A DNA stretch of 64,000 nt from Candidatus Aquitaenariimonas noxiae (GTDB lineage: Bacteria; Omnitrophota; Gorgyraeia; Aquitaenariimonadales; Aquitaenariimonadaceae), in NCBI GenBank assembly GCA_002780005.1, contig PEWV01000025.1, forward strand, positions 25,150 to 89,149. Direction: 5' to 3'. Shown here one piece after another: positions 21,101 to 36,597 of this stretch. The notes below the pieces were generated by a model. That model saw nothing but the letters and a program-made list of their open reading frames with translations. It ran no database searches and was not told the DNA's origin. Position numbers and translations under genes: made by a program. Each line of letters starts with the position of its first letter. Position 1 is the stretch's first letter.

Positions 21101-24100
21101 TATCCAGAAAAGGCTCAAAGCCCGCTCTATAAGCATATGCGGGCTTTTCAATTCAACAGTATAGGAAATATACTTTACGATCACGGCAATAACGCCGGCT
21201 CTTAATAATCCGGCAATTACCTGGCCTATACCCAAAAGGCTCCAGAAATTAGTGCGGACATCTTTAGGCACGGTCCTGTCCCAGCGCACTGTCCTTTCTT
21301 GTATGATACGGCTATTTCCGAACTGTATCATATTTCTATATGCGGATACTAAATTGCTAATTATAAGAACGGCCATAACTACGCCCTGCGCCGAGATCCC
21401 AAAAAGCCCTGCCCAATGCGGTTGGGCAAGTAAGGTAGCCAATAGAAAATAGATCATTACGAAAGCGAATCCAACCATAACCTGCCAGAAGGCAACCCAT
21501 TTTCTATCCTGTATTAATTGCTCCCTTAATTTGAATTCGGGCGACATGGCTAAACCGCTGCGGCGTTCTTGATACGGTCTTTCCGCATCTTTTATCTTTT
21601 CGGTACGATTCATGCGGGCATAGACTATCGTTACTGCAAGTATTGCCGAGAATGCTACAAATGATAATTCCATCCACAAAAATGACATGGAAAGGATGCC
21701 GAATTGCATTTCGGCTACGCGGGTTAAAGTTAAAAGAAGCACGGTCTCCAAAACCCCGAAGGAAGGCCAGGCTAAAAGCTCTCCTACTTCGAGCCATAAA
21801 TTCATAGGGCTTGCCGGCAGGTATCGCGTAAAGTACATACGAAGGAGGCCAAGGAAATTTGGACAAGGGGTCGAGACGATTTCCGGGGGATGAACTTCAA
21901 AAGCTACTATTTCGCCCTGATGTTCCGATGAAAATCTGCCACCGTCAAAACCATCTCTGGTGTCATTCCATCGGACTTCAACGCCCCTTACCCATATTGA
22001 TCTTCCCCTGGTAAGATGATCAAGGATCTCGTCTTTTCTTTCTTGCAAAATGCCTATTATGGAATTGCTGCCGAACTTATTAAGAAATCTCTCCCAAATA
22101 TGCTCTGCGCGCTCATCCTGACGAGATGGCTCAGGCGCTTGGGCTACTTCCGCCTGTTCATCACGTAACCTATTTAGGACTATTACAGCTTTGCTCCATA
22201 TAAAAGGTGCTACCACGGCTGTCCAAACATAAGCTATTAAATCGCTTCCTAAAATACTTGGAAGTCTATGAATAGATTCGTGAGATAAGATAAGTCTTTG
22301 GTCCTGCGGCGAGATAGATTCGAGGGCTTCCCGTATTCTCTCTTTTGTTATACTAGAACCTTTTCTGATGCTGAATGCTAAATTTTTGTCTCTGCCTGTA
22401 ACTATTAAGACATCTTCTGTTTGCTTTTCACTCTCTATGAGTTCTCTTTCTAATGCGACTTGTAAAGACGGATGAATGTCAAAAGGTGGTCCTGCCCTCG
22501 TAGGCGCGCTGGTAGATAAATGCGCCAGCATGTTCAGCGGGCCGCGCGACAAATTGAACAATCTCACGGCTGAAACTGAAAAATAAACTCCTAATATAAA
22601 CGGCAAAGCTGCAAATAACCAGTGCGCATTCAAATAAAAAGCTATAGCGACTCCTGCAATCCCGCCTAAAGCAAAAAGGCTGCTTGCGAAACCTGTAACC
22701 ATTGCCGGCTTAGGAGCGATCGGTATTGAAGAAATATCCTCTTCATCAGATAGCGCCAAAGTCGGCTCTAGATCTAAAATGAATTTATTCTCATCCTTTT
22801 CTCTAAATCCGAACCTGTTAGCGATCGAACGCATTTCTTCATTTATACCTGCAATCTCGCAGCTAAACCTTGTATAACCCCGCCCTTCCAGCCGTTCTAT
22901 AAAAATCTCGAATAACTTTGTACCTATGCCTTGTTCTTGAAAATTAGGATCTACCGCCATTTCTCTAAGCTCGAACGTCCTGCCGTGCACAGGCGAACCG
23001 GTTATATATCCTTGGACCTTACCATTTACCCTGCAGACTAAAATATCCGGCTTTATTTCCGCATCGCCCTGCGACATAGCGATGATCGTTCTATAACCGC
23101 TGGAAAAATCATGGCCGCCGGCTTTTTTGGCTTCTTCGGCTCGGTGCGGATAGATTAAAGAACTAAGCTCTGCGATCCTTCCGACATCATTTTCAAGGGC
23201 CAGCGTAATTTCCGCACCCTTGCCTATTTCTGCAATTAAGATATCTTCTTCTCCGAAATCTAACGCATACTGGACAGGCCTTTGGGCTTGAACAGGCTGT
23301 GGCTCATTTAACACATCTTCAACAATTTGAGTAAGCGAGCTGAATTCCCTGTGGCTTATCCGGGAATAACCCGGAGGCGCCCTGGCAGATTCTGATGTAA
23401 CCCAGTCGGCGACATCCAAAAACATATCTCTATCTTCTAAAGACGACCAAACAGGAAGATCCATAACTGTGGAATAGTCACCTATCGGCAGCCTGCCGAA
23501 GAGTTTCCAAAATCTCAAGGGGACTATTACGTGGTAGATCAGGCCCCTTAATTGTTTTTTTGTCGTAAGCGAGCTCAAGTTTGACGGATAAGCGATCCCG
23601 TACAAATCGCAATAATCCCTAACTATTTGTTTAACATCAGCGATCGAGACATCAGATCCTTTAAATTGCCGCCAAAATCTTATTCTTTCCTCTTTTTCAT
23701 AATCAAAAATTGTGCGATCCTGCCATGACGCGCCGTGTCTAAGCGCCCATAGGGCAGGATGTGTTTGTAAAATAGCGCCTTGTTCGGAAAGCTCCTTTAG
23801 TCTATGTGCTGCTATTTTTCTTGTAACTTTATTACTGTCTGTAAGCTTTTTAATTAAAGTTGCGAGCTCAGCCCTGCTTATTTGAGCAGTAACGGCTTCT
23901 GCATTATCGGCGGGTTCTTTTGGTTCATCCCTATCGGCTGTTGCGGGAACTGCGACGGCATCTTCTTCGGCAACCGGCAATGCCTTCATCTTCATTATCT
24001 GCCTGCAGAGATTTCTATTTATTCTTACATCTGTGGCCCCCTCTTCCTGGCCTACTAATTCATTTGTATATGGATGAGTTGTCTGGCTTGGATTGTAATA

Positions 24101-24508
24101 ACGAAGGATATAGCCGTTCATGCAGCTTATCAGTATCTCGCCTCTGCCGGTCGTATGTTGCAGTTCTGCAACCCAGCCTTGGCCGGCTTCTGCTAAGGCC
24201 GCCCTTACGCCATCCAGGGACAAGTTTTCTTTTGTCCGGCCGTTCCCGTTTTCGATCAATTCGATAAGAAGCTTGGCCTTTACGCTGACAAGCGATTTTT
24301 CATTATCAAAAATCGACGGAGGAATTAAGGCGTGCCTTTTTGTTAACCCCGTTAGAAACTTTGTTATATTTCTTTTTTTAGATGATATTTCTAACGGGGT
24401 GAATATATCCGGATCGGCATAGGCAACAGTCTGGTATATAAGGCAAAATACTAGCGTTAGCGCTATTGCCTTTACCCAGGTATAATTTTTCAAATTAATA
24501 ATGCTCAT
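11597..24508 (-). CDS. giant (4303 aa) polytopic membrane multidomain protein with GNAT, about 20 TM helices, HExxH motifs, SAM methyltransferase, two wHTH-like modules, HD domain, HisKA plus HATPase_c core and the conserved C-terminal module
   Basis: Uninterrupted 12,912-nt ORF with ATG at 24506-24508 and TAA at 11597-11599, 1 nt before the next ATG. Signal peptide VKAIALTLVFCLIYQTVAYA|DPD. Motifs: QEQGIGTKLFE (GNAT), HELGH and HETAH, VVLDLGCGGGEDS (methyltransferase motif I), LFHDIDRFF (HD), FIHDVLQPMTEL (H-box-like), then LRRILSNLLTNIPRYV, IEVEDDAGGI and GHGLATSRQF..GVGTTFKI (GHKL N, G1 and G2 boxes). Many hydrophobic 20-25-aa stretches at aa 600-650, 905-1150, 1520-1760 and 2050-2180. Confidence 0.85.
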   Translation of the reverse strand: MSIINLKNYTWVKAIALTLVFCLIYQTVAYADPDIFTPLEISSKKRNITKFLTGLTKRHALIPPSIFDNEKSLVSVKAKLLIELIENGNGRTKENLSLDGVRAALAEAGQGWVAELQHTTGRGEILISCMNGYILRYYNPSQTTHPYTNELVGQEEGATDVRINRNLCRQIMKMKALPVAEEDAVAVPATADRDEPKEPADNAEAVTAQISRAELATLIKKLTDSNKVTRKIAAHRLKELSEQGAILQTHPALWALRHGASWQDRTIFDYEKEERIRFWRQFKGSDVSIADVKQIVRDYCDLYGIAYPSNLSSLTTKKQLRGLIYHVIVPLRFWKLFGRLPIGDYSTVMDLPVWSSLEDRDMFLDVADWVTSESARAPPGYSRISHREFSSLTQIVEDVLNEPQPVQAQRPVQYALDFGEEDILIAEIGKGAEITLALENDVGRIAELSSLIYPHRAEEAKKAGGHDFSSGYRTIIAMSQGDAEIKPDILVCRVNGKVQGYITGSPVHGRTFELREMAVDPNFQEQGIGTKLFEIFIERLEGRGYTRFSCEIAGINEEMRSIANRFGFREKDENKFILDLEPTLALSDEEDISSIPIAPKPAMVTGFASSLFALGGIAGVAIAFYLNAHWLFAALPFILGVYFSVSAVRLFNLSRGPLNMLAHLSTSAPTRAGPPFDIHPSLQVALERELIESEKQTEDVLIVTGRDKNLAFSIRKGSSITKERIREALESISPQDQRLILSHESIHRLPSILGSDLIAYVWTAVVAPFIWSKAVIVLNRLRDEQAEVAQAPEPSRQDERAEHIWERFLNKFGSNSIIGILQERKDEILDHLTRGRSIWVRGVEVRWNDTRDGFDGGRFSSEHQGEIVAFEVHPPEIVSTPCPNFLGLLRMYFTRYLPASPMNLWLEVGELLAWPSFGVLETVLLLTLTRVAEMQFGILSMSFLWMELSFVAFSAILAVTIVYARMNRTEKIKDAERPYQERRSGLAMSPEFKLREQLIQDRKWVAFWQVMVGFAFVMIYFLLATLLAQPHWAGLFGISAQGVVMAVLIISNLVSAYRNMIQFGNSRIIQERTVRWDRTVPKDVRTNFWSLLGIGQVIAGLLRAGVIAVIVKYISYTVELKSPHMLIERALSLFWIAIPFAVIYAVSKALLPIFVRQPFNPYIRITTPGTSYVVTKLNEGSGLVTYYDFGGGLKVKCLGDSNIRPVKDAKGEWFIFYPDRFNMVVCAGEGFKYKEGPGNLLYPWRHMWRWSNGSCRAELVQYGWQRRGLKAEEVGPGEFKITSEYSTNGNNNWVDRLLVQFEFDPAVREALETKRAEAEIRLKEEGVIYVWGFPVSYDPGEDRFIFEVEDFRKDLADEPVVIYSPEVRKYEVVEINAENRRLGLLDSIAPSGNTEEAGRLQEEASTAGSVKDRKDYLVYYHDAETGQSVAAAVVNVTCVCETWPERIVDIRSVKLPGIGELPIEEVIEFNANKIRVAKDDVSPETDRVLVGFRRAAPETPDAVYYEKDTDTFSQKWQLYRSFFRSRIFALGEIGWLLTNVFGGIIRVLVVLPYNFMGESFTRLAMTSFLAGIASSIVMVISSYVSYRKADEALQGDTSGAEGKLRKAWLWICTIRLASVLFKTILFPQIFIFLFNPATMPLTYTVFLFAASFIDTIEMSFVSMVWYSIFERELRHRFTKYWVGIGFGTFLNQILGVVSTGATLYFAGNFINNYHQQLSGYLQGVANIPPAVATPPTFGTGPLILVGASLVAYVVARLLLPLLSRRFALVRTKQEASGESMKTMLTAREGTGPIQYEDLVFDEKYDGLELQLEKSKRPVRGGEAQGDREKLQGLVYDALDALETETQGTEAEAILKDIIARNLKENRAPPVIRVVSSDNFTVNAARYIDINGNVEILLNKTFVETLLSAPSEYRSATKWLLAERLFHELGHDNSIGLAVEEKDEEKAQVFRDLILYTSCVYNKPLFDEIREYFTKEKPSFPSGNYFDERGLEYLAGLKENASTREDYEHLFYQISLFVSSRYYAEDAFTPSGFVVKAMPTGQRAGSNATNSAGRFFGAFALYGASFMIINLLVGMHIMPALVLFIPLALSISLLARGVSYKTSIAMFVASILLAVGILVIHPVGIAWVTGATTLTILGAMVSFSAGAMLKQLRSGREITILQRALLVILLLVTIFIPQYVRVQQELGAANDRAIRYKIPENADRAKARRTIRRPDWYRMGNEMRSGSRYIDKRDGQGFLYGPKLRTALMAMRELDPEMFSWMEANDVPIYRDGATPPWVAGYTGRMNRGYAYTFAPGGAGVRYNINPVEYSRQAIENAVRAGKVDIPIEEVQELTEEDLDTSSVANIYSVIEHETAHYRELWPYYDNWISEKILDNITMFKLIDIEKRAFNRAMEGKERAGYHVTFLDKFEYVQKAYNIQRMMIIFTTIIKDVFLILLVWFLSNPIRIVRGIRRGILSHCFIDYETYFLMSDVIGDIRSGKWRKTHRKLRDFVEERVSSVHDAIMYRIEWRPDALIVWRDIHMAFAAYAENVARDRQRKGDRELWEDTLRRLSALRPVVHRRDGLTARHLLNRYFDRNLYICGPARIDEQGNIAWPVTNMKPDSDTPHYWDEFERRATVGWLVIETAYANALRREGVRRVYLERRDRSQRNLSQDQIDRLFGGPIRPLKPHSTIAGPGVREEDHDNITNPMLERIFDGEKPGCYISDTEGSETRQSQEDNKLLADLRGLTLNYYKDTPEEAEASEDLKDTNIYLLDPDARSPPEARSYCLWQDVADPVARFVIGHAGRGLGGHFREGEFPAQQNGYLPLALMRQLMVDRAREKVRDNIGRYNYLTRVIALMVRHEARHAREKKLTNGETEEVEQEVAEMMRALHPYLSANQARLLEERFEEFGDKVAQILEHYGTFTAQEIEDSERLLESWRSSAVLTPIELWQLWSYLTLTGREMGEEYAQLHRDIVGLISEAFKNGKKDEQDIVPQIDGVVIGYPWRRSDPSMERAANIIDKKRALLERVAFRSGEVVLDLGCGGGEDSVDIARNNPEVMVYGIDARSENLKRAIAYADASIPGQSNIRFLQRDFRSNPENIPLRGIPLNDSSVDKILLLSDVFVGQSEEFIVSAWQEVLRVLKPGGQIIFFGSVGLVELEDLLGMKVEDYLIYHIVVKAYWGNLYSYIINVESKPPYAAAHRTYPQGSPAEFLKSILLTKDWPTPELQVLATRFKSGGALTISELQQLRFKNQENFGEGVFSYETVRIEIANLEEAGIVNIDRNSSTHKISLRKELKGKMPRYLVNRLCNIRIDAPSLQRSSRLSSQPLRHYDEVSKLQAEEVHALRQMVDKILGQSTLPDSSTTTQPAPVITAESKKGWHGVTTAFSGLASPKGSPAEALCDLFAHRSQIGINPITVRSAQGEWRRENTRTGKPYARVVIANELEALRRLGFLAIKDAPDSEPREPVRGKPNVYYLTNIFFQIQDEELVDRICDIDVEGDYVMQHCTYSESRLAMARDKITEHMRCTAPIDITHRQESDEILGRLRTAIEENRTNLNKMTDPEKAQWLFDWMDANKNCRDELFIRNMPPHMRSIPGIIREIDPSADPAALIAGLFHDIDRFFEGYYVHPSDGFKGGTPQYLHYKSNQHPRLSANFALKWLREAGVSDKVLGDVEILILRHETGITEEVAAENGFQQEAASDMNLLQRADSISQFIPELLINSYILLERDKGKGEGNAMIRYKYARLVPEDKIRADAFVAAGEETFRQSKEGVETLAVFQSIRSELMHTQGTAEGAKAPLGQPAVTVEPTEESVKMVAFIHDVLQPMTELYGWLAYVQDNLRPDADASEKEKFMAVYTLLDSIKVTQQERKRPYYHGRETGDWNAVVEDGKAFADELRQAYGAVKVYFTENPTRLDAITDPSVLEICRESFEGDFSAAALEFAESGLDMLDSYVMENIELGAFLGGFLQARGKEFHDKNIRIYFEKPQEGLIVKASRGGLRRILSNLLTNIPRYVEAGAEHKVTVRLKPSNGQVLIEVEDDAGGIRKPEMLEKVLDPETQTETKAIFVRGSSDKEDTGILSKGHGLATSRQFALSFGGDMDVDTEAGVGTTFKIILPQVEGKAEPGRIQAERFVENIRALAKEAKDNGEELLVGIDTEIGNLGDYAQNLLTILTELRQKEGLDNLTVIAGEGNVLSAHLNAYLEDALRAGRKVRAAAIVREDNRAKRMFNSLEGKSQIISVDDTRIMSEDGKTLNQFIPITRIVECALMRVLNKPYEPIPYVEEREEDGILKFIMLPPAQPLSEEELRRRYDEEAEFIGNA
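12209..13126 (-). other. histidine-kinase core (HisKA-like H-box plus HATPase_c) embedded in giant gene 2 (aa ~3795-4100)
   Basis: H-box-like FIHDVLQPMTELYGWL, then N-box RRILSNLLTNIPRYV, G1 VLIEVEDDAGGI and G2 KGHGLATSRQFALSFGGDMDVDTEAGVGTTFKI. Confidence 0.55.
13499..13831 (-). other. HD-domain-like region in giant gene 2 (aa ~3560-3670), paralogous to the one in giant gene 1
   Basis: NMPPHMRSIPGIIREIDPSADPAALIAGLFHDIDRFFEGYYV..NQHPRLSANFAL..ILRHETG aligns residue for residue with the MSPHMQALPDVV..LHDADRFFDGYYV..IQHPRMAADFAR..IRNHEKG segment of gene 1. Confidence 0.5.
15059..15541 (-). other. class I SAM-dependent methyltransferase domain in giant gene 2 (aa ~2990-3150)
   Basis: GEVVLDLGCGGGEDS (motif I), MVYGIDARSEN (motif II) and LKPGGQIIFF (post-II). 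Checked at 15421-15448. Confidence 0.65.
22799..23191 (-). other. GNAT N-acetyltransferase-like domain in giant gene 2 (aa ~440-570)
   Basis: ELREMAVDPNFQEQGIGTKLFEIFIERLEGRGYTRFSCEIAGINEEMRSIANRFGF matches the acetyl-CoA-binding motif A (Q/R-x-x-G-x-G/A). Checked at 22860-22951. Confidence 0.55.
23993..24335 (-). repeat. N-module DNA repeat, copy A (5' end of giant gene 2), ~88% identical to 34000..34342
   Basis: Direct read-off alignment: cattatctgcctgcagagatttctatttattcttacatctgtggccccctcttcctggcctactaattcatttgtatatgg.. against cattatctgcctgcatagatttctatttattcttacatctatgacgccctcttcctggcccactaattcatttgtatacgg.. It encodes the near-identical segment LIPPSIFD..VKAKLLIEL.ENGNGRT.ENLSLDGV.AALAEAGQGWVAELQ..GEILIS.MNGY.LRYYNPSQTTHPYTNELVGQEEG..DVRINRNLCRQIMKMKALP. 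Confidence 0.8.
24347..24399. repeat. small palindromic (MITE/REP-like) element inserted in-frame in giant gene 2
   Basis: CCCCGTTAGAAA (24347-24358) and TTTCTAACGGGG (24388-24399) form a perfect 12-bp inverted repeat around a 29-bp AT-rich core. The element encodes ~18 extra residues (TPLEISSKKRNITKFLTGLT) that giant gene 3 lacks at the homologous position between the signal-peptide cleavage site and HTLIPPSIFD. Confidence 0.6.
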
Positions 24509-24510: not shown

Positions 24511-25059
24511 TTAGGCTTTTCCTATGAATTCCGATTCTTCCATATACCTTCTTTCAAGCTCTTCTCTTTCAAGCGGTTTTGCATCTTCCTGCACACTAAG
24601 TATAAGTTTTAAAATACCGTCTTCCTCAACCTCTTCAACGTATGGAATCGGTTCATGAGGCTTGCTTAGTATTTTCGTCAAGGCGCGCTCTATTATTTTA
24701 GCGATTGGAATATAGTAATTCAGGCTGCCTGTAAAGTTATCTATAACACGACTATCATCAACTGAAACAACTTGAGCTTTATCGACTAATGATTTAAACA
24801 TCCTTTTCTGCCTATTGTCCTCTTTCACTATAACTACTGCCCTAACCGTCTTACTGTCCCTTTGCGCATCTGAAAGATATGTATTTAATTGGGCCGACAG
24901 AATAGTTCCCTCACCGGTAATGACCCTTAAGTTTTCCAATCCCTCTCGGTCTTTAAGATTAACCAATGTCTCAAGCAGGCCTGGCGCATAATCTTTCAGA
25001 TTTCCGATTGTCGTGTCTATGCCCACTACTAATTCTTCGCCTTTATCTTTTGCTTCTTT
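24511..25059 (-). other. conserved C-terminal module, copy 3
   Basis: EELVVGIDTTIGNLKDYAPGLL..NLRVITGEGTILSAQLNTY..TVRAVVIVKEDNRQKRMFKSL..QVVSVDD..YIPIAKIIERAL..KPHEPIPYVEEVEEDGILKLILSVQEDAKPL..RYMEESEFIGKA*. Confidence 0.75.
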
Positions 25060-28000
25060 GGCTAAAGATCTCAAGCTAGCCACTAAGCGCACAGCTTCTT
25101 CTTGAGACGGTTCCATGCTTAGCGTAGGCATTCCTGCTATCATATCTTCTTCTTTTGGCAGAATGACTTGCGCTTCTTGCTCTACCGTCTTTACCTTTCC
25201 AATAATATGATCTACTTTAGCCCGTAATAGTTCTCTCTCCTGGTCGGTTAGCTTGCTTACTTCATCATAGTGCCTTAATGGTTGGTCTGTGAGACGCGCA
25301 GAACGCTGTAGGGACGAGGCTTCGATCCTGATATTGCAGATGGCTTCAACAATTTCCCTGGGCGGAGCCCTTGCTAATTCCGGCCTAAGCGTTACTTTGT
25401 GCACTTTATCTGCCCTGTCGATGCTTACTATACCAGCTTGTTCGAGGTTTGATATTTCAACTCTCACTGTTTCGTAACTGTAGGTCCCTTCGCTAATATT
25501 ACTTGGGTTCTTAAGTCTTAGTTGCTGCAATTCAGCTATTGTCAGGGCCTCGCCATTCTTGAACCTCGTAGCCAGCTCTGTCAGTTCCGGCGTTGGCCAG
25601 TCCTTGGTCAGAAGCAAAGAATGCAAGAATACGGCCGGCGAGCCGTCGGGCGTAAACGGAATATGCTCTATTCGCAAGAAATCTTCTGCAATTCTTTCGA
25701 TCGCAGACATTTTATCTTCTATATTTTCTTGGCACATTAGAGGGTCTTTCGCATCTATGATATCTTGCGGCACCTCTATTAAAAGCGCCCACTCTGAACT
25801 GAATCTGCTTCCATCATATTCACTCGTCCTGACCACTTCAACGCCATCTAATCCATTTAACTCATCTATAAAACGTGTAAAATTAGGGTTCGATTCGTCG
25901 GCTTTAAAAGAAACATATAGTTTATTATTGCTCGGAATGTCCGCGCTGCTGGTCTGCTTGTCACTTTGAAGTTTCCTAAAATACAAATCAATTCTTTCTT
26001 GCGGTGCTTCGCCAGAATATGAATACAGTTCTAAATAAGCTCTAGGGGTCGGGGCATCGGCCCATGTAGTATAAATAAATGGCAAAGCATTAAGCCTTCC
26101 CACAACACCATTAATATCTCGATCCTCTCCCTGGAGAGCGTCGTCTGACCACCCGTTTGTAACCATCAAGGCACTATTAACATCTCCGGGATTAAAAATT
26201 ATACCATATCTATCCTGTTCTTTTCGTTCCGCAAAATTTCTAGGGCCGTCTATATATACTCTTATTCTATCCCTTAACAGGCCCTCCGGCTTGCCTTCAG
26301 GGTAGTTGGCCGGAAAGAAAACGATCTGTAATGCCCTTGCAGCTTGATGCCCAAAATGACGGCAAAGGATTTCATGTAAGATATATTCTCCTTTTAATGG
26401 CCATGGTAGTGTTCCTAGAAAATCACGTGAATAGTAAATTGCTGGGTTTTCTGCATCATCTAACTTATTTTGCCCAAGCGCAAAATCCTGACTGTTCTCA
26501 ATTTGCGAAACGACTTCTCTTAAAGTAGCGTTTGGTAAATCATATAATAACGCTAGAGATAATTTATTATTATCAGGCGCAATAAGATCACCCCAAATTC
26601 TTGCAAACAATCCTGGCGCTTCCTCTTGAGATATAGGAGGTGTGGCGCCTTCCTCGTAATATTCGGGGTTTGACAACCTATCGATCGCGCTTCTCAATGA
26701 CACATCGGAAATCTCAGAATTGTTAATTTCTTCAATTACAAATTCCTTTAAACCATCTTCTAGTGGTCTATATTTTCTTTCTGCAATATCTTGATTCATT
26801 CTCTCAAGAGCTATATGCCCCTGCGCTATGTAACCATCGGGTGTGGTCTTAGGCGCAGCAGGCAATGTCGGGGTCGCGCCGGGCATTCTACCCGGAGTTT
26901 TCTCTTGCCCCAGAGGTGTAGGCGTCACTGTCGCTGCAGTCGCCCCCGATGGCTCTGAAAGCACCTCTAAAATATCATAAAATCTTGTCACAACGTCATC
27001 ATAGTCTGATACGACTGCTTCGCCATAACCCCATGTATATCTGCTCTTGTACGTTTTACGCACTAACATCACATCTCTTATAACGTCAAAGTTCCACCAT
27101 TCTGCGTTTGGATCATCTGATTGCATCAATCTTATATTGTAAGCCGGAGTTCCTCCTCCGCCTACATATGCTGCATAGCTGAATCTTGTGACATTCCGCG
27201 CGCCGCCCTTTGCTGATATTCCCCCCATATAAGGAGCAAGATCCTCACTATCCCTTACCATTTTCATCTTTCTTGTGACAACACAAATACTCTGAATAGG
27301 ATCATAAGGATCATATTCTCCGCTCAAAACGCCTTCAGCCTTAAGCCCATCAAATATCTTTCTATAATGATCCGCTTCTTCATCCCCGTCTAATAATTGA
27401 GCGATACCCCTGGCGTATTTTCCTGAAGAATCCAACGTTGTGGCTTTCGGGCCGCTAGAGTTAAAGCTATCGGTTTCATAGAATAATAATCCAAGAACCC
27501 TATTAAAGGGAATATTATCCTTTTCCTGGCCTGCTAAGAATTTAAATTTGTTCAAAAATCTTGCCATTAGCTCGTTCCTTTGCGCTTCTGTCATGTTGCT
27601 GAATTTAGGATCGGCAAATACTTTTCGTGCAACTGCATTCAATACAGCATCCCGGTCCATGTGCGCCAAATACACGTATCTGAGCGTCCTATAAAGGCGT
27701 TCTTCTGATCTCAATGTAATACGTATTTTTCTGTCCTCAGGTTCTGCTATATCAAACTTGTCTGAATATTTACGCGCCGCAAGATCTAAGAGATTTGCGC
27801 GCAATTTATCGGAAGTCCACCCCATATACTCAGGCCTTGAAAATCTTACGATATCCATGAGTAAGTCAAGATCCTCCTGTTCAATATAAGCCTCTATGTA
27901 AGGATCGACAAATGTTCCGTATATCCTGTTTCTAAAGTCATCGCTTCTCATGCCGATCAATAGCGGTTTTATCCTATTTATTTTAACGCTTATAGCCTGA

Positions 28001-31000
28001 GCCTTCTCTTCTCTCGCCTTCCTTCCGGCTTCAGCATTGGCTAAAGCCTGCCTTAACAACTCTTTCTTTTCCTTACGATCCCGCCATTTGATATATTCTT
28101 CGCGGGACATTAGGCCGGCTTTGATCAAGAGAACAATAGCTGTGCCGACAAGCAGGCCTTCCACAGCCATTCTTCTTGCATAACTCCTAGGGCCTTCTGA
28201 AGGATAATTTCTCTCAAATCTCATTAAGTTAAGGGCTCCTGCGAACGCAAACAGAGCGCCTATATATCCGATTAGAATAACCAAGGCTGGATGAAGGTGC
28301 AGGCTTAAAAACCATATTATTCCTGCAACCGACCCTCCGCCGAATACGAGCCCTGCCCAAAGTTTCCACTTGCCTGGGGCTATAACCCTTCTTTCATAAA
28401 GAATCTTCCTAAGGTCCTGTTTATCAAATTTATCAAACACCCTTATCAGCAATTCTCTTTGCTGGCTGTTATGAGTGGCTAGTATAAAATCCAGGGTCGC
28501 ATTCGTAGCTTCACTCTCACCGCACTCGCGCGCCATATGATACAATTCATGATGGACATTGAGCAGCACGAATATCTGCGTCAATTCTTTGGCTAGATTC
28601 TCTAATTGCCAAGGAGTCATATTTAAATTCATTTCCTGCGCTACTGCGGATAATCTATAGTAAGTATCTATAAATAAATCATAATCTAAGATCATTAAAT
28701 TGTTCTGTCTCTGCGAAACGTGCCCCAATTGCGGAAAACCCCATCCTATGCGTATAGCTATGCAAGGATTATCTGTCCCTGTCTGTCTCTGTTTTTCGAA
28801 TATATCCCTTAGAAGTTGCCGCATAGCCGGGATATTAAAGGCATTTTGTAAATTAATCCTGTATTCATCGGGAATAAATTCGCCTGGCGCTGTATCCTGG
28901 CGCTGATAGACAACAATCTGCCCCCTTCTGTCCGGAACAGCAAAAAGGACCGCTATTTTATCAGTTGTCATTTCATTAATACTTGGGGGATAAGGTTCGA
29001 CTCTTTCAAAAAACGAAAACATGTTAGCGCCTCGACCTGTTTTTGGCAAAACAGCCAGCTTTAATCGGGCGCTAATCCTGGCAAAAGTCCTCGAGACAAC
29101 GCTCCTGACGCTGCCGGCCGCGAACCGATTATCGCGCTCGATCAAACCTCTAAGGGCTTCGGGTTTTAACGCGCCTCTATAAGAGATGCCCAGCCTCTCT
29201 ATATTAGTTAAGACATGGCTGTAAGATGCTGCCGCATCGCCAAAAGCGCCTCTGGCTTCACATTGTAAAGCTGCCGTCAGATCGGCATTGACCTCACCCT
29301 GCAAAACTTCAGCTTGCTCGAGCGCGATTTCCTCAAGCCTAGCCGTCGCCGCTTCCATACGAGACGTAAAACAATCAAAACGCCTTATCAAATAGCCAAG
29401 CCAATTATAAGCATGCTCCACCTGGACCGGATAAATATTATTCGATGCCACCAAGTCACTTATATGCTGGTCTTCCAGCTCTCCCGTTTCAGCAAGGTAT
29501 AATATATCTACTATACCGGCATAGGTAAGATCTATATCCGGACTAAAAACTGTTCCTAGAATTTTCAAGAGTAGAACAGGATTGCCTCTAACAGCGGCTC
29601 TATATTTTATGCCGCTCAAAACTTGGTTTAGAGGGCTCACCAGCATGCCTACGTAGCGCAGCTCGCCTTCTACGCGATCCCTCGATAGGCGCATGTCGAG
29701 ATCTGAAACAACTCCGTTAATAATCACCTCTCTCATGGCCCGCTTGAATATATCTCGATCAGCGATTTCATCGGCGACACTTGCTTGAGATAGCTTTGCC
29801 AAAACATTTTCTAGCACCATAAAAGGATCCGCATCCGCTGTCATAGAGATGTGCCAAATAGTATCAGCAAGCATTTCCGCCCTATCTTTTCTGACAGCAA
29901 TCCTACCTCTACCAACGCCTGCAACAACCTGATTTGCCACGGTTTCAACAATTAAAGCCGCAGTTCCCGCACTTCTCGCGCCCGCATCAGGCGGAATTGT
30001 GGCAAATACGCCTCCGGCTTCCCAAACATATTTATTATAGAAATGGTGTAAGGCCACTGTTAAAACAAAAACCGGTATAATGCTTGGGGCGAGACCCAAA
30101 CTAAACATCAATGCCATCGGCACAACGCTGAATAGGAGCCCTGGCACTAGGAAGAATAAACCTAATCTAAAATCCTCCTGCTTCCTAAACCCAAAAAGAC
30201 TTCCGGTATGTTCAAAAATCCATCTTTTTTCTATCAGGTTATCGCCGATCCTGGGACTGCGCACGTAAACTCTTAAATGGCCTAATAAGAAAGTTGTAAA
30301 TGTCATTACAGCTGCTATTGATCCGGCTATAAACAAGGGCTGATGCAATATAGACAAAAGAAGGAAGGTTGAGCCGTAGTATATAGATAACCTGATAATA
30401 TTTTCTATTACCGGAGCCACGTAAAGCGAATATCCCCTCAATCCCTCTTTGCCCTCTTTCGAAGTAGATGCCGCAGTTCTCAGGAGATCAACCTTAGAGG
30501 CCCATTGCCATATGTCTTTTCCTGTGAATAATTTCACTATCCATCTTATAGAAGCTATAAGCGCAACAGAAGTTGCCGGGGGTAAAGAGTCTTCACCTTC
30601 TTGCGTTCCTCTCTCAACAATAGTTTTAGCATCCGATCTTGCAATAATATCATGCGCTAATACGCATTTTAGATAAGGATCCGGGTTTTCTTTATAAATT
30701 CTTAATGTTCTATCTGCACCTTCTTTTGCATTATCGACAATCCTTATCAACTCCTCTACCGTTAGGTCAACGGTTAACCCTCCTGTAAGCTGCTCAAACA
30801 CTAAGGCACTATCAAATGTTAATTGAAATGGCGGTTGTGCATAGTGGTGCATAAATTGCCGCGCAGACTCTACGAGTCTACGGATATCAACAGGGGATAT
30901 GTGCCGCTCTCTCGCGGCATCTATAAGTTGCGTTACTTCCGGATGTTTCTCCTGATATTTAGTGAGATACGTTTCGGCCCTCTCGGTTTCCGCGCTTAAC

Positions 31001-34000
31001 TCTTGCGTCTCAGGAGACGTCAGGGCTTCCGGACCCCGCCTTCTTGCTATAATATCAATTTCCGGATTATCCTCTATAAATTCACTTAAAAAACTCCTGG
31101 CTGCAGAATCTCCTTTTCTTGAAATTTCTAAAATAATACCGGCCCCGCCTTCAGCATTAAGCAGCCCCCTGGCCGCAGCAGTTCTTACTTCAAGGCTCGG
31201 GTCATTCTGCAATGCCCCCCTCAATACGGTAAGGCCGCGCTCGCCGGCCCTGCTGAGCGCTAATGCCGCGGCTAATTTCGAATCCGTATCCACATTCGTT
31301 CCCAGCACTGCCTGCAAATTCCTTATTCCGGAATTACCTGGTAAACTTGCCAACCCCAAAGCCGCAGCATATTTAGCATCCATATCAGACGGCTTTTCTG
31401 TTCTGCTTGATAATATGCCATTCAAAACATCTGTCCCTCGACTCATCGTACCGAGCGCTATAGCGGCGCAGTACTTAGCAGCCAAATTATCATTATTGCG
31501 TATAACGCCGTTGAATACCCTTACAACATCATCCCCAAAGTGAGTTAACGCTATTGCCGCGCCTTTTTTAGCGCCAAAACTCGGATTTGTGGACAAAATA
31601 CCGGCAAGTTTTCTTTGGGGCTTGCTTTTATCAGTGGCGGCCATTCTCATAAGATGCTCGCGCGTTTCAGCAAAATTTGGGTCTTCAAACAACCCCAATC
31701 TCTGGCCTCGGGCACCTGTCAAAACTTCGTCAATATGCCTGACCGCTGCCAGCCTACTGCGATCTGTTGTTAATACCTCCCTGCGGTGCAAAAGCGTTGA
31801 TTCCACGCGATGGCTTTGCGTTTCCTTTAAAATCCTGATCATTACAGGTTCTATATGAGTCTGGATATAGATTTCGTCTTCATCGTTTAAAGCCAAAGAT
31901 AGATTGTTCATTACTGCTTCAGGCTGTTCTTCTGCAAACGACACGAGAAAATCATCGATAAATGCGCTTACAACCGGGTCTTCTGCCTTATACATGCCAG
32001 ACAAGATTCGCACTGATTCGTCAGGGTAGGCATGGGCGATATTCCTTATAGTATCGATTGCAAATTGTATAACTGGTTGTGGAAAATCGTGCAAAAGACC
32101 CAAATATTGGCGCAAAACTTCACCCATATTCGCACTCAAGGCCTGCGCCAATCTATCTTGAGATTCTAGTTGGGCTTGACGCAAGGGCATCAAATCACTT
32201 CCCTCTAGGGTTTTAACATCTCCTTGCTGCATGCCGCTGACTGTAACAGGTCCGATCGCTATTCTTTCCATCCTAATAACGGGATTCCCAACAGCATCCA
32301 TCATTCCTTTGACCTGACGGTATTTTCCCTCACTTATAAAGAGATCTAGCGTCGTAGTACCGTGACCTCGCTCGATTATCGCAATTCTGGCCGGAGCCGT
32401 ATCATATTCAATTAAGCTTCCTTCCATAATTTCTACTTCAACGTGCACTCCTTCTTCGAGCGCCATCTTCTTGTCATCTGTAACCTCACCGCTGGCAACA
32501 ACTCTATACTGCTTCTCTATATGGCCGGCCGGCAGTATAAGATTACCTATCATGCTGGGATCATCAGTGAGGATCATAACGCCAGGAACATCATAATCCA
32601 GGCGGCCTACCGGATAGAGGCCTGTTGTATCTATATGGTGATCTTCGGAAAGGATGTCATATATAGTCCTTCTGTTAAGCCCTTCGGCGTCTTCGCGAGT
32701 GGATAAAACATCAGCCGGTTTATATAATAGATAATATCTAAATTTGACCGGCACGCGCACAACATTGCCAAACTGATCCAATAACTCTACTTCGCCTTCG
32801 CGAGCCAATCGATATAACTCGTCAAAAAGCACTCGTCTAAAATGGGGGGCGAGCATTATCGCATCTTGAGTTAAGCCTATGTCATGCGTCGCCTGCATGA
32901 GTTCTATATTGTCGGGTCGGGCAAGATATTCGACAGTATCTTTTATAGCATTCCCTTCGTCTGTTATGCCTTTTATTCCATGCGCGCCTATATCATGCGA
33001 CCACAAGCCCATGAGAAATAGGATGCGCTGGTCCTGCAGTTCCGGAGGAGCCCTTAAAAGCGGCCAGTTTATTATGACCCTGCCGGGCATATGCGTTGCC
33101 GCCTCATCAATATCATATCTCAGGCTTAAAGTTATTTTGAAACCTTCGGCCGGGATCCTATCCGCTAGTTCGGCCTGCTGTGTTCTAAACCACCGTTTTA
33201 GAGAAATATCAAGGATCCCTATTTCCGGATATTTTGCGAGTAGTTCTTCCTCTTTCATGCTGCCATTCATAATAGGCTCTATATCATTTTCCTGAACTCC
33301 TGACATGCGCAAAAATCTTTCATCCATAGCCAGATTGATTTCGCCGGACTTAGTAATGCTGATATCGGCAGTAAGCGGCGTTTCACGCGCGATACCTAGC
33401 ATTTCTTCTGCGGCTTCCTCGGAAGGTCTTCCGTCTTCCATGGGTTGAGCGCGGGCAACTACAGCCGGATAAGCCTTTGCTGCATCCTGAGGCACAAGGC
33501 AGGCATTCAAGAAAGCTCTTTCAGCGCCGTACCAAATATACCTGTCTGAAAGATCAATAGCCCTCTGCCTCAGTTCCTCGGTAGAGGCAGCCCCATATTG
33601 CTCAATATTGGCAATAATATGTCTGACAATTGTTTCAAACTCAGCGGTACCGCTTTGACCAGCTACTATAGTATAATTTTGCTCTCCCCTTGCGTATCTT
33701 CTTAAAATTTCTATTCTATCAGCAAGGGTAGCTCCCGTTAATATTCTTTGCAATAACTGTCCAAATGCATCCGCGTCGGCACGATCACGCGCTTCAAACC
33801 CTGCTATTAAACTGCTCCAGCTCTGGTCTTCTTTTATAGCGTAATAATGAGTAGCCCAATATTCGTTTGAGCGCACCCCTCCGCCTGGCTCAACAATCCT
33901 GTCATTTGGCCTGCCGGCCATAGCCATAGGCTCTCGCAGCCCCAACTCTGCCCTAGTAGGAATTGGAGGCAATCCTGGCTCAGGCAGGGCTTTCATTTTC

Positions 34001-34656
34001 ATTATCTGCCTGCATAGATTTCTATTTATTCTTACATCTATGACGCCCTCTTCCTGGCCCACTAATTCATTTGTATACGGATGAGTCGTCTGGCTTGGAT
34101 TGTAATACCGAAGGACATAGCCGTTCATGAAGCTTATGAGTATCTCGCCTTTGCTGGTTGTATATTGCAGCTCCGCGACCCAGCCTTGGCCGGCTTCGGC
34201 TAAAGCCGCCTTTACGCCATCCAGGGACAGGTTCTCTCTTGTCCGGCCATTCCCGTTCTCGACCAATTCGATCAGAAGTTTGGCCTTTACGCCGGCCAGG
34301 TAATTTTCATCGTCAAAAATTGATGGCGGGATCAATGTATGCTTATTTTGATCTAATATATCGGGATTAGCATATAATATATTTTGGAACGTAAATGATA
34401 TTATAAGCAGAAATGAAATAATCTTAATAATGGGCTTTTTGTGGAAATACGAAGGATGGAATAGAAAGAAGCTTTCGATAAACCCCGTTAGAGAACTTCG
34501 TTCTCTAACGGTTTGTGCTGACAGTGGCTTTAAACTGCCGTCAGCTTTAAGCGGTAATGACCGCCGATTAAAATCGGCGGTTTTCTCTAACGGGGTAAAC
34601 CGTTTGAAATGAGATGGTATATCTCTTTTTTGTTCTATATTAAACCCGCAGTTCAA
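24511..34656 (-). CDS. giant (up to 3381 aa) membrane multidomain protein with the conserved N-module, RsuA/RluB-type pseudouridine synthase, HEAT/PBS-lyase-like repeats, TM segments, HExxH motif, lytic-transglycosylase-like region, wHTH module and the conserved C-terminal module; true start codon uncertain
   Basis: Uninterrupted ORF with TAA at 24511-24513. The longest ORF starts at TTG 34654-34656, but the signal-peptide-like segment KIISFLLIISFTFQNILYA|NPD, homologous to the N-terminus of gene 2, begins only ~75 codons later, and no ATG, GTG or TTG lies near it. Motifs: VGRLDYDVPGVMILTDD and EKQYRVV..GKYRQVKGMMDAVGNPV (pseudouridine synthase), HEAT-like AAIALG / AALGLASL / AALALSRAG repeats, HELYH, and ETDSFNSSGPKATTLDSSGKYARGIAQLL (SLT-like). 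Confidence 0.8.
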   Translation of the reverse strand: MNCGFNIEQKRDIPSHFKRFTPLEKTADFNRRSLPLKADGSLKPLSAQTVRERSSLTGFIESFFLFHPSYFHKKPIIKIISFLLIISFTFQNILYANPDILDQNKHTLIPPSIFDDENYLAGVKAKLLIELVENGNGRTRENLSLDGVKAALAEAGQGWVAELQYTTSKGEILISFMNGYVLRYYNPSQTTHPYTNELVGQEEGVIDVRINRNLCRQIMKMKALPEPGLPPIPTRAELGLREPMAMAGRPNDRIVEPGGGVRSNEYWATHYYAIKEDQSWSSLIAGFEARDRADADAFGQLLQRILTGATLADRIEILRRYARGEQNYTIVAGQSGTAEFETIVRHIIANIEQYGAASTEELRQRAIDLSDRYIWYGAERAFLNACLVPQDAAKAYPAVVARAQPMEDGRPSEEAAEEMLGIARETPLTADISITKSGEINLAMDERFLRMSGVQENDIEPIMNGSMKEEELLAKYPEIGILDISLKRWFRTQQAELADRIPAEGFKITLSLRYDIDEAATHMPGRVIINWPLLRAPPELQDQRILFLMGLWSHDIGAHGIKGITDEGNAIKDTVEYLARPDNIELMQATHDIGLTQDAIMLAPHFRRVLFDELYRLAREGEVELLDQFGNVVRVPVKFRYYLLYKPADVLSTREDAEGLNRRTIYDILSEDHHIDTTGLYPVGRLDYDVPGVMILTDDPSMIGNLILPAGHIEKQYRVVASGEVTDDKKMALEEGVHVEVEIMEGSLIEYDTAPARIAIIERGHGTTTLDLFISEGKYRQVKGMMDAVGNPVIRMERIAIGPVTVSGMQQGDVKTLEGSDLMPLRQAQLESQDRLAQALSANMGEVLRQYLGLLHDFPQPVIQFAIDTIRNIAHAYPDESVRILSGMYKAEDPVVSAFIDDFLVSFAEEQPEAVMNNLSLALNDEDEIYIQTHIEPVMIRILKETQSHRVESTLLHRREVLTTDRSRLAAVRHIDEVLTGARGQRLGLFEDPNFAETREHLMRMAATDKSKPQRKLAGILSTNPSFGAKKGAAIALTHFGDDVVRVFNGVIRNNDNLAAKYCAAIALGTMSRGTDVLNGILSSRTEKPSDMDAKYAAALGLASLPGNSGIRNLQAVLGTNVDTDSKLAAALALSRAGERGLTVLRGALQNDPSLEVRTAAARGLLNAEGGAGIILEISRKGDSAARSFLSEFIEDNPEIDIIARRRGPEALTSPETQELSAETERAETYLTKYQEKHPEVTQLIDAARERHISPVDIRRLVESARQFMHHYAQPPFQLTFDSALVFEQLTGGLTVDLTVEELIRIVDNAKEGADRTLRIYKENPDPYLKCVLAHDIIARSDAKTIVERGTQEGEDSLPPATSVALIASIRWIVKLFTGKDIWQWASKVDLLRTAASTSKEGKEGLRGYSLYVAPVIENIIRLSIYYGSTFLLLSILHQPLFIAGSIAAVMTFTTFLLGHLRVYVRSPRIGDNLIEKRWIFEHTGSLFGFRKQEDFRLGLFFLVPGLLFSVVPMALMFSLGLAPSIIPVFVLTVALHHFYNKYVWEAGGVFATIPPDAGARSAGTAALIVETVANQVVAGVGRGRIAVRKDRAEMLADTIWHISMTADADPFMVLENVLAKLSQASVADEIADRDIFKRAMREVIINGVVSDLDMRLSRDRVEGELRYVGMLVSPLNQVLSGIKYRAAVRGNPVLLLKILGTVFSPDIDLTYAGIVDILYLAETGELEDQHISDLVASNNIYPVQVEHAYNWLGYLIRRFDCFTSRMEAATARLEEIALEQAEVLQGEVNADLTAALQCEARGAFGDAAASYSHVLTNIERLGISYRGALKPEALRGLIERDNRFAAGSVRSVVSRTFARISARLKLAVLPKTGRGANMFSFFERVEPYPPSINEMTTDKIAVLFAVPDRRGQIVVYQRQDTAPGEFIPDEYRINLQNAFNIPAMRQLLRDIFEKQRQTGTDNPCIAIRIGWGFPQLGHVSQRQNNLMILDYDLFIDTYYRLSAVAQEMNLNMTPWQLENLAKELTQIFVLLNVHHELYHMARECGESEATNATLDFILATHNSQQRELLIRVFDKFDKQDLRKILYERRVIAPGKWKLWAGLVFGGGSVAGIIWFLSLHLHPALVILIGYIGALFAFAGALNLMRFERNYPSEGPRSYARRMAVEGLLVGTAIVLLIKAGLMSREEYIKWRDRKEKKELLRQALANAEAGRKAREEKAQAISVKINRIKPLLIGMRSDDFRNRIYGTFVDPYIEAYIEQEDLDLLMDIVRFSRPEYMGWTSDKLRANLLDLAARKYSDKFDIAEPEDRKIRITLRSEERLYRTLRYVYLAHMDRDAVLNAVARKVFADPKFSNMTEAQRNELMARFLNKFKFLAGQEKDNIPFNRVLGLLFYETDSFNSSGPKATTLDSSGKYARGIAQLLDGDEEADHYRKIFDGLKAEGVLSGEYDPYDPIQSICVVTRKMKMVRDSEDLAPYMGGISAKGGARNVTRFSYAAYVGGGGTPAYNIRLMQSDDPNAEWWNFDVIRDVMLVRKTYKSRYTWGYGEAVVSDYDDVVTRFYDILEVLSEPSGATAATVTPTPLGQEKTPGRMPGATPTLPAAPKTTPDGYIAQGHIALERMNQDIAERKYRPLEDGLKEFVIEEINNSEISDVSLRSAIDRLSNPEYYEEGATPPISQEEAPGLFARIWGDLIAPDNNKLSLALLYDLPNATLREVVSQIENSQDFALGQNKLDDAENPAIYYSRDFLGTLPWPLKGEYILHEILCRHFGHQAARALQIVFFPANYPEGKPEGLLRDRIRVYIDGPRNFAERKEQDRYGIIFNPGDVNSALMVTNGWSDDALQGEDRDINGVVGRLNALPFIYTTWADAPTPRAYLELYSYSGEAPQERIDLYFRKLQSDKQTSSADIPSNNKLYVSFKADESNPNFTRFIDELNGLDGVEVVRTSEYDGSRFSSEWALLIEVPQDIIDAKDPLMCQENIEDKMSAIERIAEDFLRIEHIPFTPDGSPAVFLHSLLLTKDWPTPELTELATRFKNGEALTIAELQQLRLKNPSNISEGTYSYETVRVEISNLEQAGIVSIDRADKVHKVTLRPELARAPPREIVEAICNIRIEASSLQRSARLTDQPLRHYDEVSKLTDQERELLRAKVDHIIGKVKTVEQEAQVILPKEEDMIAGMPTLSMEPSQEEAVRLVASLRSLAKEAKDKGEELVVGIDTTIGNLKDYAPGLLETLVNLKDREGLENLRVITGEGTILSAQLNTYLSDAQRDSKTVRAVVIVKEDNRQKRMFKSLVDKAQVVSVDDSRVIDNFTGSLNYYIPIAKIIERALTKILSKPHEPIPYVEEVEEDGILKLILSVQEDAKPLEREELERRYMEESEFIGKA
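27127..27519 (-). other. possible family-1 lytic transglycosylase (SLT)-like region in giant gene 3 (aa ~2380-2510)
   Basis: FYETDSFNSSGPKATTLDSSGKYARGIAQLL resembles the E-S-x-F-x-P-x-A-x-S-x-x-G-A-x-G-L-M-Q signature, with AAYVGGGG further on (AYNAG-like). The match is imperfect. Confidence 0.3.
31102..31599 (-). other. HEAT / PBS-lyase-like alpha-helical repeats in giant gene 3 (aa ~1020-1185)
   Basis: Four or five ~30-aa units, each with an A-A-I-A-L-G / A-A-L-G-L-A-S / A-A-L-A-L-S-R-A-G / V-R-T-A-A-A-R-G-L core. Confidence 0.45.
32227..32754 (-). other. pseudouridine synthase (RsuA/RluB/RluE family) catalytic domain in giant gene 3 (aa ~635-810)
   Basis: YYLLYKPADVLST..LYPVGRLDYDVPGVMILTDD (motif II with catalytic Asp), HIEKQYRVV, and EGKYRQVKGMMDAVGNPVIRMERIAIG (motif III, K/R-x-H-Q-I-R-like). 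Verified at 32581-32610. Confidence 0.65.
34000..34342 (-). repeat. N-module DNA repeat, copy B (5' end of giant gene 3)
   Basis: See copy A. The two copies are offset by about 10.0 kb in direct orientation. Confidence 0.8.
34483..34595. repeat. nested palindromic element sharing the CCCCGTTAGAGAA arms, in the 5' region of giant gene 3
   Basis: CCCCGTTAGAGAA at 34483-34495 and TTCTCTAACGGGG at 34583-34595 form an outer inverted repeat. The local hairpin CCGTTAGAGAAC-ttc-GTTCTCTAACGG lies at 34485-34511, and a perfect 20-bp palindrome CCGCCGATTAAAATCGGCGG at 34561-34580. The left arm can pair either locally or long-range, which are mutually exclusive RNA structures. Confidence 0.6.
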
Positions 34657-34755
34657 AATTTTACCCCCCGCAGTTTTTAACTTTTTATTGTATTATCATA
34701 TAACTTGATATGTTATACTATAAATATAATCTTACTTTTTATATGATTTACCTAA

Positions 34756-36560: not shown

Positions 36561-36597
36561 TTTCCTCTTGCGTCCCCGGGCGCATATTAATAAAACT

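Follow-up and report, generated by a model that had tools for sequence, protein, structure and literature searches.

Giant multi-enzyme membrane proteins of the phylum Omnitrophota have been described as archaeovorins, in which HEAT_2, methyltransferase, HATPase_c, HAD and occasionally SLT domains are combined and whose topology is unresolved (West-Roberts et al. 2023, 10.1101/2023.11.21.568195). A related group, the 'multi-enzyme / Pfam Module 1' long proteins, contains methyltransferase, HATPase, GNAT and HAD domains (Nielsen & Lui 2026, 10.64898/2026.06.07.730766). According to the published view, the giant proteins of Omnitrophota serve a predatory or episymbiotic lifestyle; with chains of tens of thousands of residues, they are all but impossible to handle. 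A small and tractable version of the problem is provided by a 64,000-nucleotide stretch of DNA from Candidatus Aquitaenariimonas noxiae (contig PEWV01000025.1, positions 25,150 to 89,149; hereafter the window), which contains a giant open reading frame (ORF), designated G3, together with the neighbouring giants or paralogues G1, G2, G4 and G5. Its proteins are of 3-4 kaa (thousand amino acids, aa) and have a clear frame, a recurring protease-like module whose structure is modelled with confidence, and easily assayed cargo (pseudouridine formation).

The locus shares with archaeovorins and Module 1 proteins the phylum, an N-terminal signal, transmembrane segments, a Pfam-free N-terminal region, and the domain types HEAT_2, methyltransferase, HATPase_c, GNAT and HAD, as well as the same paradox, namely that enzymes of cytoplasmic type are predicted outside. 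The divergent SecA_DEAD domain found in most archaeovorins is absent from G1-G3 and present in a syntenic homologue (P0013). On the other hand, G3 is ten to forty times smaller than archaeovorins (3381 aa versus more than 30,000 aa, encoded by genes of more than 90 kb; Nielsen & Lui use a length of at least 10 kaa), it lies in an array of paralogues and not in a single gene, and it has no SecA_DEAD, glycosyltransferase or glycoside hydrolase domain.

Another point of comparison is the polyvalent proteins of phages and conjugative elements, which fuse lysozyme/transglycosylase domains with zincin peptidases and enzymes acting on nucleic acids; the commonest interspersed domain, often present in several copies, is the zincin peptidase, proposed to release the other domains after delivery, and pseudouridine synthase is not mentioned there (Iyer et al. 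2017, PMC5512222). Both archaeovorins and polyvalent proteins were already known, and the first-pass annotation of the window was therefore wrong in stating that the joining of an RNA-modifying enzyme to a cell-wall-lytic-like module is without known precedent. Their likeness to the present family lies in large polypeptides composed of many unrelated effector enzymes with interspersed zincin-like domains, and the two repertoires overlap in methylases, RelA/SpoT-type and lysozyme/transglycosylase domains. G3 differs from polyvalent proteins in occupying a fixed chromosomal slot between housekeeping genes instead of being phage- or plasmid-borne, in having a Sec-type signal instead of relying on packaging or conjugative transfer, and in carrying HExxC...H where they carry HExxH...E. 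In MARTX toxins, conserved N- and C-terminal regions frame variable effectors, which are released in the target cell by an internal protease. The resemblance to the present family would be one of logic alone: G3 has a Sec-type N-terminal signal where MARTX toxins have a C-terminal signal for type I secretion, and the locus has no adjacent secretion genes. MARTX/RTX identity itself was ruled out, as neither RTX (HemolysinCabind) repeats nor the cysteine protease domain (CPD) could be detected in G1-G3 by Pfam.

Our tentative proposal, held with somewhat less than even confidence, is that G3 belongs to a lineage-restricted set of modular, Sec-exported large proteins of Omnitrophota, which would be small relatives of archaeovorins, and that it represents a polymorphic multi-enzyme effector polyprotein. 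The frame would be formed by a signal-like N-terminus with a head domain and by a C-terminal domain of ~195 aa, enclosing interchangeable cargo modules; in G3 the cargo comprises a pseudouridine synthase with a truncated S4 domain, HEAT repeats, two membrane clusters, an orphan region and a zincin-fold HExxC...H module. G3 would leave the cell via Sec and then be held in, or passed beyond, the envelope. The interspersed zincin-like modules may cut the polyprotein into working units, and the cytoplasm-type enzyme modules might work in the cytoplasm of the partner (host or prey) of a presumed episymbiotic bacterium, with the synthase as a fast-evolving recruited cargo aimed at foreign RNA instead of the cell's own rRNA. 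Since the cargo enzyme types need cytoplasmic substrates or cofactors (RNA, S-adenosylmethionine (SAM), ATP, acetyl-CoA, RNA polymerase core), their position behind signal-like N-termini, together with the interspersed zincin modules, would be explained most simply by an exported effector polyprotein. Action outside the producer's cytoplasm had also been suggested in the first-pass annotation; it is compatible with the data and plausible, as signal-like N-termini precede cytoplasm-requiring enzymes family-wide, and we infer it on that basis. If true, the effector interpretation fits the predatory or episymbiotic view and moves the target from the prey wall to the prey interior. A synthase acting on foreign RNA would be a new kind of effector chemistry, and one acting on the cell's own rRNA would imply that housekeeping enzymes have been absorbed into membrane megaproteins in reduced genomes.

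The ORF G3 exists exactly as first annotated, being a 3381-aa reading frame on the minus strand with a TTG start, and public gene callers give the identical ORF. An exact-match look-up identified it as NCBI PIU41965.1 ('hypothetical protein COS99_02525'), which is named 'Pseudouridine synthase RsuA/RluA-like domain-containing protein' in UniRef and assigned to Candidatus Aquitaenariimonas noxiae, phylum Omnitrophota. The sequence recurs on contigs of several metagenomes, and conspecific copies differ by at most one substitution (R2157M).

The RsuA/RluB-type synthase core claimed for this protein was borne out by profiles and structures. Pfam PF00849 matches aa 641-787 (E 2.6e-14, 54.2 bits versus a cut-off of 26.8), TIGR00093 reaches E 1.2e-30 and 106.4 bits, just under its cut-off of 109.3, and the RsuA structure 1vio gives E 4.4e-15. 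The proposed catalytic aspartate is conserved in the alignment, where it is matched with the GRLD Asp of 1vio and 1ksk; its position is D687 and not D688 as originally numbered. In an alignment with the 24 nearest relatives, all 20 of 20 invariant columns are retained, including K646, P647, PVGRLD and Y717, and the core is thus predicted to be catalytically intact. The features shared with RsuA, RluB, RluE and RluF (PF00849, TIGR00093; 1vio, 1ksk, 4lab) are motif II GRLD, the KxY tyrosine and EGK..RQV, at 30-41% identity to RluB-type enzymes. In contrast to these enzymes, the G3 domain (residues 616-830) is one part of a chain of 3381 aa and follows an export-type signal, and its S4 RNA-binding domain is a remnant from which ~20 residues of the S4 beta-hairpin are gone; PF01479 (S4) has no Pfam match in G3, whereas most of the 116 nearest relatives carry it. 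By sequence, G3 belongs to the RsuA/RluB synthase superfamily at the domain level only. It scores 44-72 bits with the equivalog profiles of RsuA, RluB, RluE and RluF against cut-offs of 275-318, and therefore its target position is not assignable.

The closest relatives of the G3 synthase are ordinary S4-plus-synthase, RluB-type proteins of 200-400 aa with at most 41% identity, and none of them is embedded in a large protein. As its S4 domain is truncated and no orthologue exceeds 41% identity, the synthase looks like recently recruited cargo and not a housekeeping enzyme. What holds of the original description is the joining of an RNA-modifying enzyme core to an export-type N-terminus, membrane segments and HEAT repeats in one protein; the HEAT-like repeats were supported by PF13646 HEAT_2, which matches G3 in two stretches (E 1.4e-8, 35.4 bits versus a cut-off of 27.7). 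In the literature, the main text of neither paper on Omnitrophota giant proteins mentions pseudouridine, a check that covered that word and not the C-terminal domain, the HExxC module or the slot between recJ and rpmB, and a full-text search for Omnitrophota with pseudouridine synthase returned only an unrelated survey of ribosome biogenesis.

The frame around this cargo was recognized by comparing the giants with each other and with public proteins. In an all-against-all comparison, the giants proved to have only their ends in common, apart from two internal modules: G1-G3 share the C-terminal domain of ~195 aa with 56-64% identity, and G2 and G3 share the signal and a head domain of ~130-150 aa (68% identity). 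The C-terminal 1197 residues of G3 were then searched with HMMER against 1.84 billion representative proteins, which returned 43 proteins. Besides the representative of G3's own cluster (P0007), the matches were confined to three modules: the C-terminal domain, the HExxC module (aa 2606-2818) and aa 3003-3178. The C-terminal domain stops 3 residues before the protein end in 30 of 31 proteins; these are between 128 and 6375 aa long, and the shortest among them may be incomplete. No match to this domain was found in PDB, Pfam or PHROGs, and a pattern scan of GTDB genomes and JGI metagenome contigs gave nothing. A word-index search with it returned a self fragment only, so that HMMER without a word index was needed to find relatives, and a word-index search with aa 226-1420 of G3 gave no match. 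Further domains seen elsewhere in the family are protein kinase, PPDK_N, HPr-kinase, HD_4, HEAT_2, PP2C and radical SAM.

Several features of the C-terminal domain could be recognized in its alignment. Predicted strand-like and helix-like stretches alternate; an Asp (in IDT) and the Val of a VDD motif are invariant, and the first Asp of VDD is mostly conserved; the extreme C-terminus is also conserved (...F/L-x-x-S/N/K-A). The longest carrier, P0032 (6375 aa), has a signal-like N-terminus and, besides the family C-terminal domain, three zincin-fold modules of the HExxC type; embedded in it at aa ~3215-3450 are Sigma70_r2 (E 5e-13) and a weak match to Sigma70_r4.

The HExxC module is the candidate for the processing activity. 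It occurs in 34 copies in 20 proteins, with a maximum of 5 per protein, and has the signature GYIxQG ... DFALG ... EYILHEILCxxxGH ... FPENYP. Within the module alignment, H161, H170 and Y185 are invariant and E162 and C165 nearly so; in G3 the motif reads H2761-E-x-x-C2765 followed by H2770, a pattern kept across 24 copies. According to structure models obtained with confidence, the module has a zincin fold. Compared with minigluzincins (selecase, proabylysin, projannalysin) and with M48/M56 peptidases (HtpX, ZMPSTE24, BlaR1), it has a near-invariant Cys in place of the second His, the invariant His that follows is 5 residues away (in occasional copies up to 9), it adds a conserved helical N-terminal half of ~100 aa that opens with GYIxQG, and it shows no similarity at the sequence level. 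Profiles of the HExxC module and of the C-terminal domain found nothing among PDB sequences.

A comparison of the genomic slot provides further evidence for interchangeable cargo. The arrangement of recJ, giants and rpmB-recG is kept in three related genomes, or four counting this one, and RecJ, Tgt, QueA, QueH and RecG of the three are 66-76% identical to those here. The slot at L011 holds two giants, of 3370 aa (SecA_DEAD, HTH_8, HTH_31) and 2789 aa (HTH); that at L013 holds one of 2966 aa (PHP, GNAT, PP2C); and that at L014 holds at least two, of 3312 aa (PHP, GNAT, weak Fic) and 4315 aa (TPR, B12-binding, radical SAM, weak DOT1). Between genomes, the giants can be aligned over 40-200 residues at the N-terminus (28-44% identity), over ~190 residues at the C-terminus (33-44%) and over one short HExxH-centred region; the remaining interiors are unrelated. 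Homologues had been expected to reveal whether the synthase and the SLT-like region are kept together, and no family member carries either. The comparison shows G3 to be a mosaic on a conserved frame, with an interior that turns over completely at a fixed locus while the neighbours remain ~70% identical. The same termini with differing interiors in one slot form a pattern known from polymorphic toxins and effectors, which is a signature of conflict. With this pattern, the question of what the giants are for becomes whether their modules are separated and delivered to a different cell.

Within L014 (10-9948), the first giant has a weak match to Fic (AMPylation) and its neighbour a weak match to DOT1. 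Domains of these two types are typically found in effectors whose targets are the proteins of another cell.

The same turnover might be explained by functionless accretion, in which a fast-evolving locus traps gene fragments, the synthase and other domains are relics, and the termini alone are under selection. This would be consistent with the unrelated interiors in related genomes, the large orphan stretches without a homologue, the truncated S4 domain, and the resemblance of G4/G5 to a frameshift-split gene. It is nevertheless considered very unlikely: the locus maintains three unbroken ORFs of 3.4-4.3 kaa, near-identical sequence is present in several independent metagenomes, and every invariant catalytic residue of the synthase is kept at ~35-40% identity to its relatives, which argues for purifying selection.

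The slot also permits a bolder proposal, which we regard as unlikely as a whole though worth stating: a hypervariable effector slot may export polyvalent polyproteins into the host or prey cytoplasm, where an undescribed HExxC zincin-fold autoprotease would free the swappable enzymes, these being the synthase in G3 and, elsewhere, PCMT, GNAT, Fic, PP2C, kinases, radical SAM and a sigma-70 module. If this were true, the G3 synthase would be the first pseudouridine synthase to serve as an inter-cellular effector rewriting the RNA of its victim.

The signal-like N-terminus and the transmembrane helices of G3 noted in the first-pass annotation are present by hydropathy and inspection, with an N-terminal hydrophobic stretch at aa 76-94 (...ILYA/NPD). 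The same layout occurs in G1, G2, G4 and family members, whose N-termini by inspection have a basic n-region, a hydrophobic core of 12-15 residues and small residues at -3/-1, and thus look like cleavable Sec signals. In G1 and many family members the N-terminal segment is the only strongly hydrophobic one. In G3, a Lys/Arg-rich loop at 1461-1496 lies between helices of transmembrane cluster 1.

The start of G3 has an unusual property. The RNA of the first 75 codons folds into near-perfect hairpins (for example CCGTTAGAGAAC-GAA-GTTCTCTAACGG), with a minimum free energy of -82.6 kcal/mol versus -52.4 for shuffles (z = -6.4). No ATG, GTG or TTG is found between codon 1 and codon 108, the homologous G2 begins ~10 residues ahead of its own hydrophobic core, and an Rfam scan of the window, including the hairpin region, gave no match. 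These 75 codons may be a structured 5' leader instead of coding sequence.

The main rival explanation is that G3 is a cytoplasmic scaffold tethered to the inner membrane, with its bulk in the producer's cytoplasm and its enzymes acting on the cell's own RNA and proteins as a fused housekeeping or regulatory 'megacomplex'. All recognizable domains are indeed of cytoplasmic type (pseudouridine synthase, HTH, GNAT, SAM-methyltransferase, HATPase_c, PCMT and HAD, and sigma-70 region 2 and radical SAM in relatives), and the positively charged loop at 1461-1496 fits this reading, for which the 75 residues that precede the hydrophobic segment also leave room. Such a reading is preferred for transmembrane-only long proteins with Pfam 'Module 1' (Nielsen & Lui, 10.64898/2026.06.07.730766), and some predicted outside locations in archaeovorins have been called implausible (West-Roberts et al., 10.1101/2023.11.21.568195). 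However, the family N-termini look like cleavable Sec signals, and by the positive-inside rule the sequence after the signal is translocated, while in G1 and many relatives a second strongly hydrophobic segment that could bring the chain back is missing. The wholesale swap of cargo between genomes ~70% identical in their housekeeping proteins is unlike housekeeping enzymes, and the G3 synthase has no orthologue above 41% identity. An inner-membrane scaffold is thus regarded as unlikely, though as a serious contender.

Several observations weigh against the proposal that G3 is an exported effector polyprotein. Export, delivery and self-cleavage are all inferred. The annotated start leaves 75 residues ahead of the hydrophobic segment and, depending on the helix count, the Lys/Arg-rich loop could keep the first 1300 residues on the inner side. 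Genes for a secretion or injection apparatus were not found adjoining the locus. In the zincin module, a Cys replaces the second zinc-binding His, and an HExxH zinc motif with a third ligand is absent from it; the module may be inactive or have another role. Moreover, no evidence on the lifestyle of Candidatus Aquitaenariimonas noxiae was found in the literature searched, and the taxonomic source of the family has been assigned for a minority of members only.

G3 had also been described as an unprecedented fusion of an RNA enzyme with a cell-wall-lytic module, on the basis of a region resembling lytic transglycosylases. The strings on which this was based do occur in order, namely E2394-T, G-I-A-Q (2417) and AAYVGGGG (2495), and four collinear blocks can be aligned by eye with Slt70 (sequence from PDB 1qsa), with spacings 8 and ~35 residues longer than in Slt70. 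Homology failed in all profile tests. Pfam gave 0 matches for the isolated segment at E <= 5 and noise only for ten sub-segments of G3; no match was found in NCBIfam or PHROGs; phmmer against PDB at E <= 10 returned no transglycosylase; HMMER against the 1.84 billion proteins found no relative of aa 2185-2585; and hhalign with a small Slt70 profile gave a probability of 0.19%. The lone signal was one BLASTP alignment to Slt70 with E 0.035 for a single comparison, which loses significance because the protein length must be counted. AlphaFold2 without an alignment gave a predicted local distance difference test score (pLDDT) of 34.7 and a predicted template modelling score (pTM) of 0.24, too low for use. 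By sequence, the region is not a demonstrable lytic transglycosylase, and the lytic half of the supposed fusion is left unsupported.

These results bear on the published archaeovorin hypothesis of a surface attachment and wall-degrading protein, according to which the HEAT repeats and the SLT-like region would act on the envelope of a neighbour and the synthase would be incidental. HEAT_2 is the commonest archaeovorin domain and SLT is present in some archaeovorins; G3 itself offers a signal-like N-terminus, membrane clusters, the four collinear strings and the BLASTP alignment. The hypothesis is distinctly unlikely here, given the failed SLT searches and the AlphaFold2 model at pLDDT 35. In addition, Pfam finds no glycoside hydrolase, dockerin, adhesin or carbohydrate-binding domain in G1-G3, no type II secretion or sugar-uptake genes adjoin the locus, and the dominance of intracellular-type enzymes would be left unexplained.

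The HExxH motif of the first-pass annotation is present in G3 as HELYH; a single occurrence is within chance (0.077 expected, P = 0.07 by shuffling) and has no profile support, as the surroundings had no match in Pfam or PHROGs and hhalign of the HExxC-module profile with the HELYH and SHDIGAH regions revealed no relation. Considered jointly, G1-G3 contain 6 HExxH motifs versus 0.31 expected. G2 alone has four (0.10 expected), and its hydrophobic segments, which form several clusters, number more than 20. A HELCH-bearing region in an L011 giant is 37% identical to the HELGH region of G2 (aa ~1880-1960), which suggests a second conserved type of peptidase-like module; an iterative search from the HELGH region found one homologue only.

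The positions of G3, its modules and the neighbouring genes are listed in Table 1.

Table 1. Location of G3, its modules and surrounding genes in the window (slash, boundary shown after the signal-like segment)
Feature	Position	Strand	Basis
G3 giant ORF, 3381 aa	24511..34656	-	ORF calling, exact-match look-up
First 75 codons of annotated G3; RNA with three near-perfect hairpins	34432..34656 (about 34420-34656)	-	folding
Signal-peptide-like segment HKKPIIKIISFLLIISFTFQNILYA/NPD, aa 73-97	34366..34440	-	hydropathy and inspection
Conserved N-terminal head domain, aa 98-225, 68% identical to G2	33982..34365	-	
RsuA/RluB-type pseudouridine synthase domain, aa 616-830	32167..32811	-	profile, structure-sequence and alignment matches
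Catalytic Asp687 codon	32596-32598	-	
HEAT_2 repeats, about aa 1040-1200	31057..31539	-	Pfam
Transmembrane cluster 1, aa 1416-1545, 3-4 hydrophobic helices	30022..30411	-	hydropathy
HELYH motif, aa 2036-2040, 60 residues ahead of transmembrane cluster 2	28537..28551	-	bare motif
Transmembrane cluster 2, aa 2097-2183, ~3 helices	28108..28368	-	hydropathy
Orphan region formerly termed SLT-like, aa 2226-2565	26962..27981	-	
HExxC family module, aa 2606-2818, predicted zincin (minigluzincin-like) fold	26203..26841	-	
Shared module, aa 3003-3178, 59% identical to G2 aa 3187-3367, also in three other large proteins	25123..25650	-	
Family-defining C-terminal domain, aa 3187-3381	24514..25098	-	
G2, paralogous giant, 4303 aa; GNAT, SAM-methyltransferase, HATPase_c, many transmembrane segments	11597..24508	-	
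G1, paralogous giant, 3695 aa; PCMT, tudor, cytidylyltransferase-like, HAD, one HExxC-type module	508..11595	-	
G4 start, running off the window	1..501	-	
yebC-ruvCAB-queH-queA-tgt-yajC-recJ	34.8-42.9 kb		
Polysaccharide-synthesis cluster	45-64 kb		

The window represents bacterial chromosome, with all large genes on the minus strand. G1, G2, G3 and G4/G5 are translationally coupled paralogues, G3 being the first of four or five in tandem; G1-G3 lie back to back, each stop 1-2 nucleotides ahead of the next start, and the start of G2 is 2 nucleotides past the stop of G3. On a conspecific contig (L007, 21095-27696), G1 is followed by G4 (1097 aa) and G5 (1103 aa) and then by rpmB, recG, rsmD and coaD. 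G4 combines the family N-terminus with a GNAT-like region and HTH-like repeats; these repeats continue in G5, which also has a weak HATPase_c_2 match and the family C-terminus. The two overlap by 4 nucleotides and are probably one gene split by a frameshift.

Two other origins of the array were rejected. The possibility that G1-G3 are pieces of a single broken gene was ruled out because each has its own signal and C-terminal domain, and a phage origin of three consecutive giant genes was ruled out because of the housekeeping context: no phage or plasmid genes were found in the window or its flanks, and in all four genomes the giants are flanked by recJ and rpmB/recG.

Two minor observations concern the region upstream. 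In this genome yajC is directly followed by recJ (34657-36900), whereas in the related L011 (4907-8116) and L013 (4884-7977) secDF and a cation-efflux gene lie between them, so the secDF of this genome would be elsewhere or lost. Finally, glycosyltransferases at 49175-51552 match the PEP-CTERM/XrtA-associated families TIGR03087 and TIGR03088, which hints that an exopolysaccharide system linked to an exosortase is encoded upstream of the giants.

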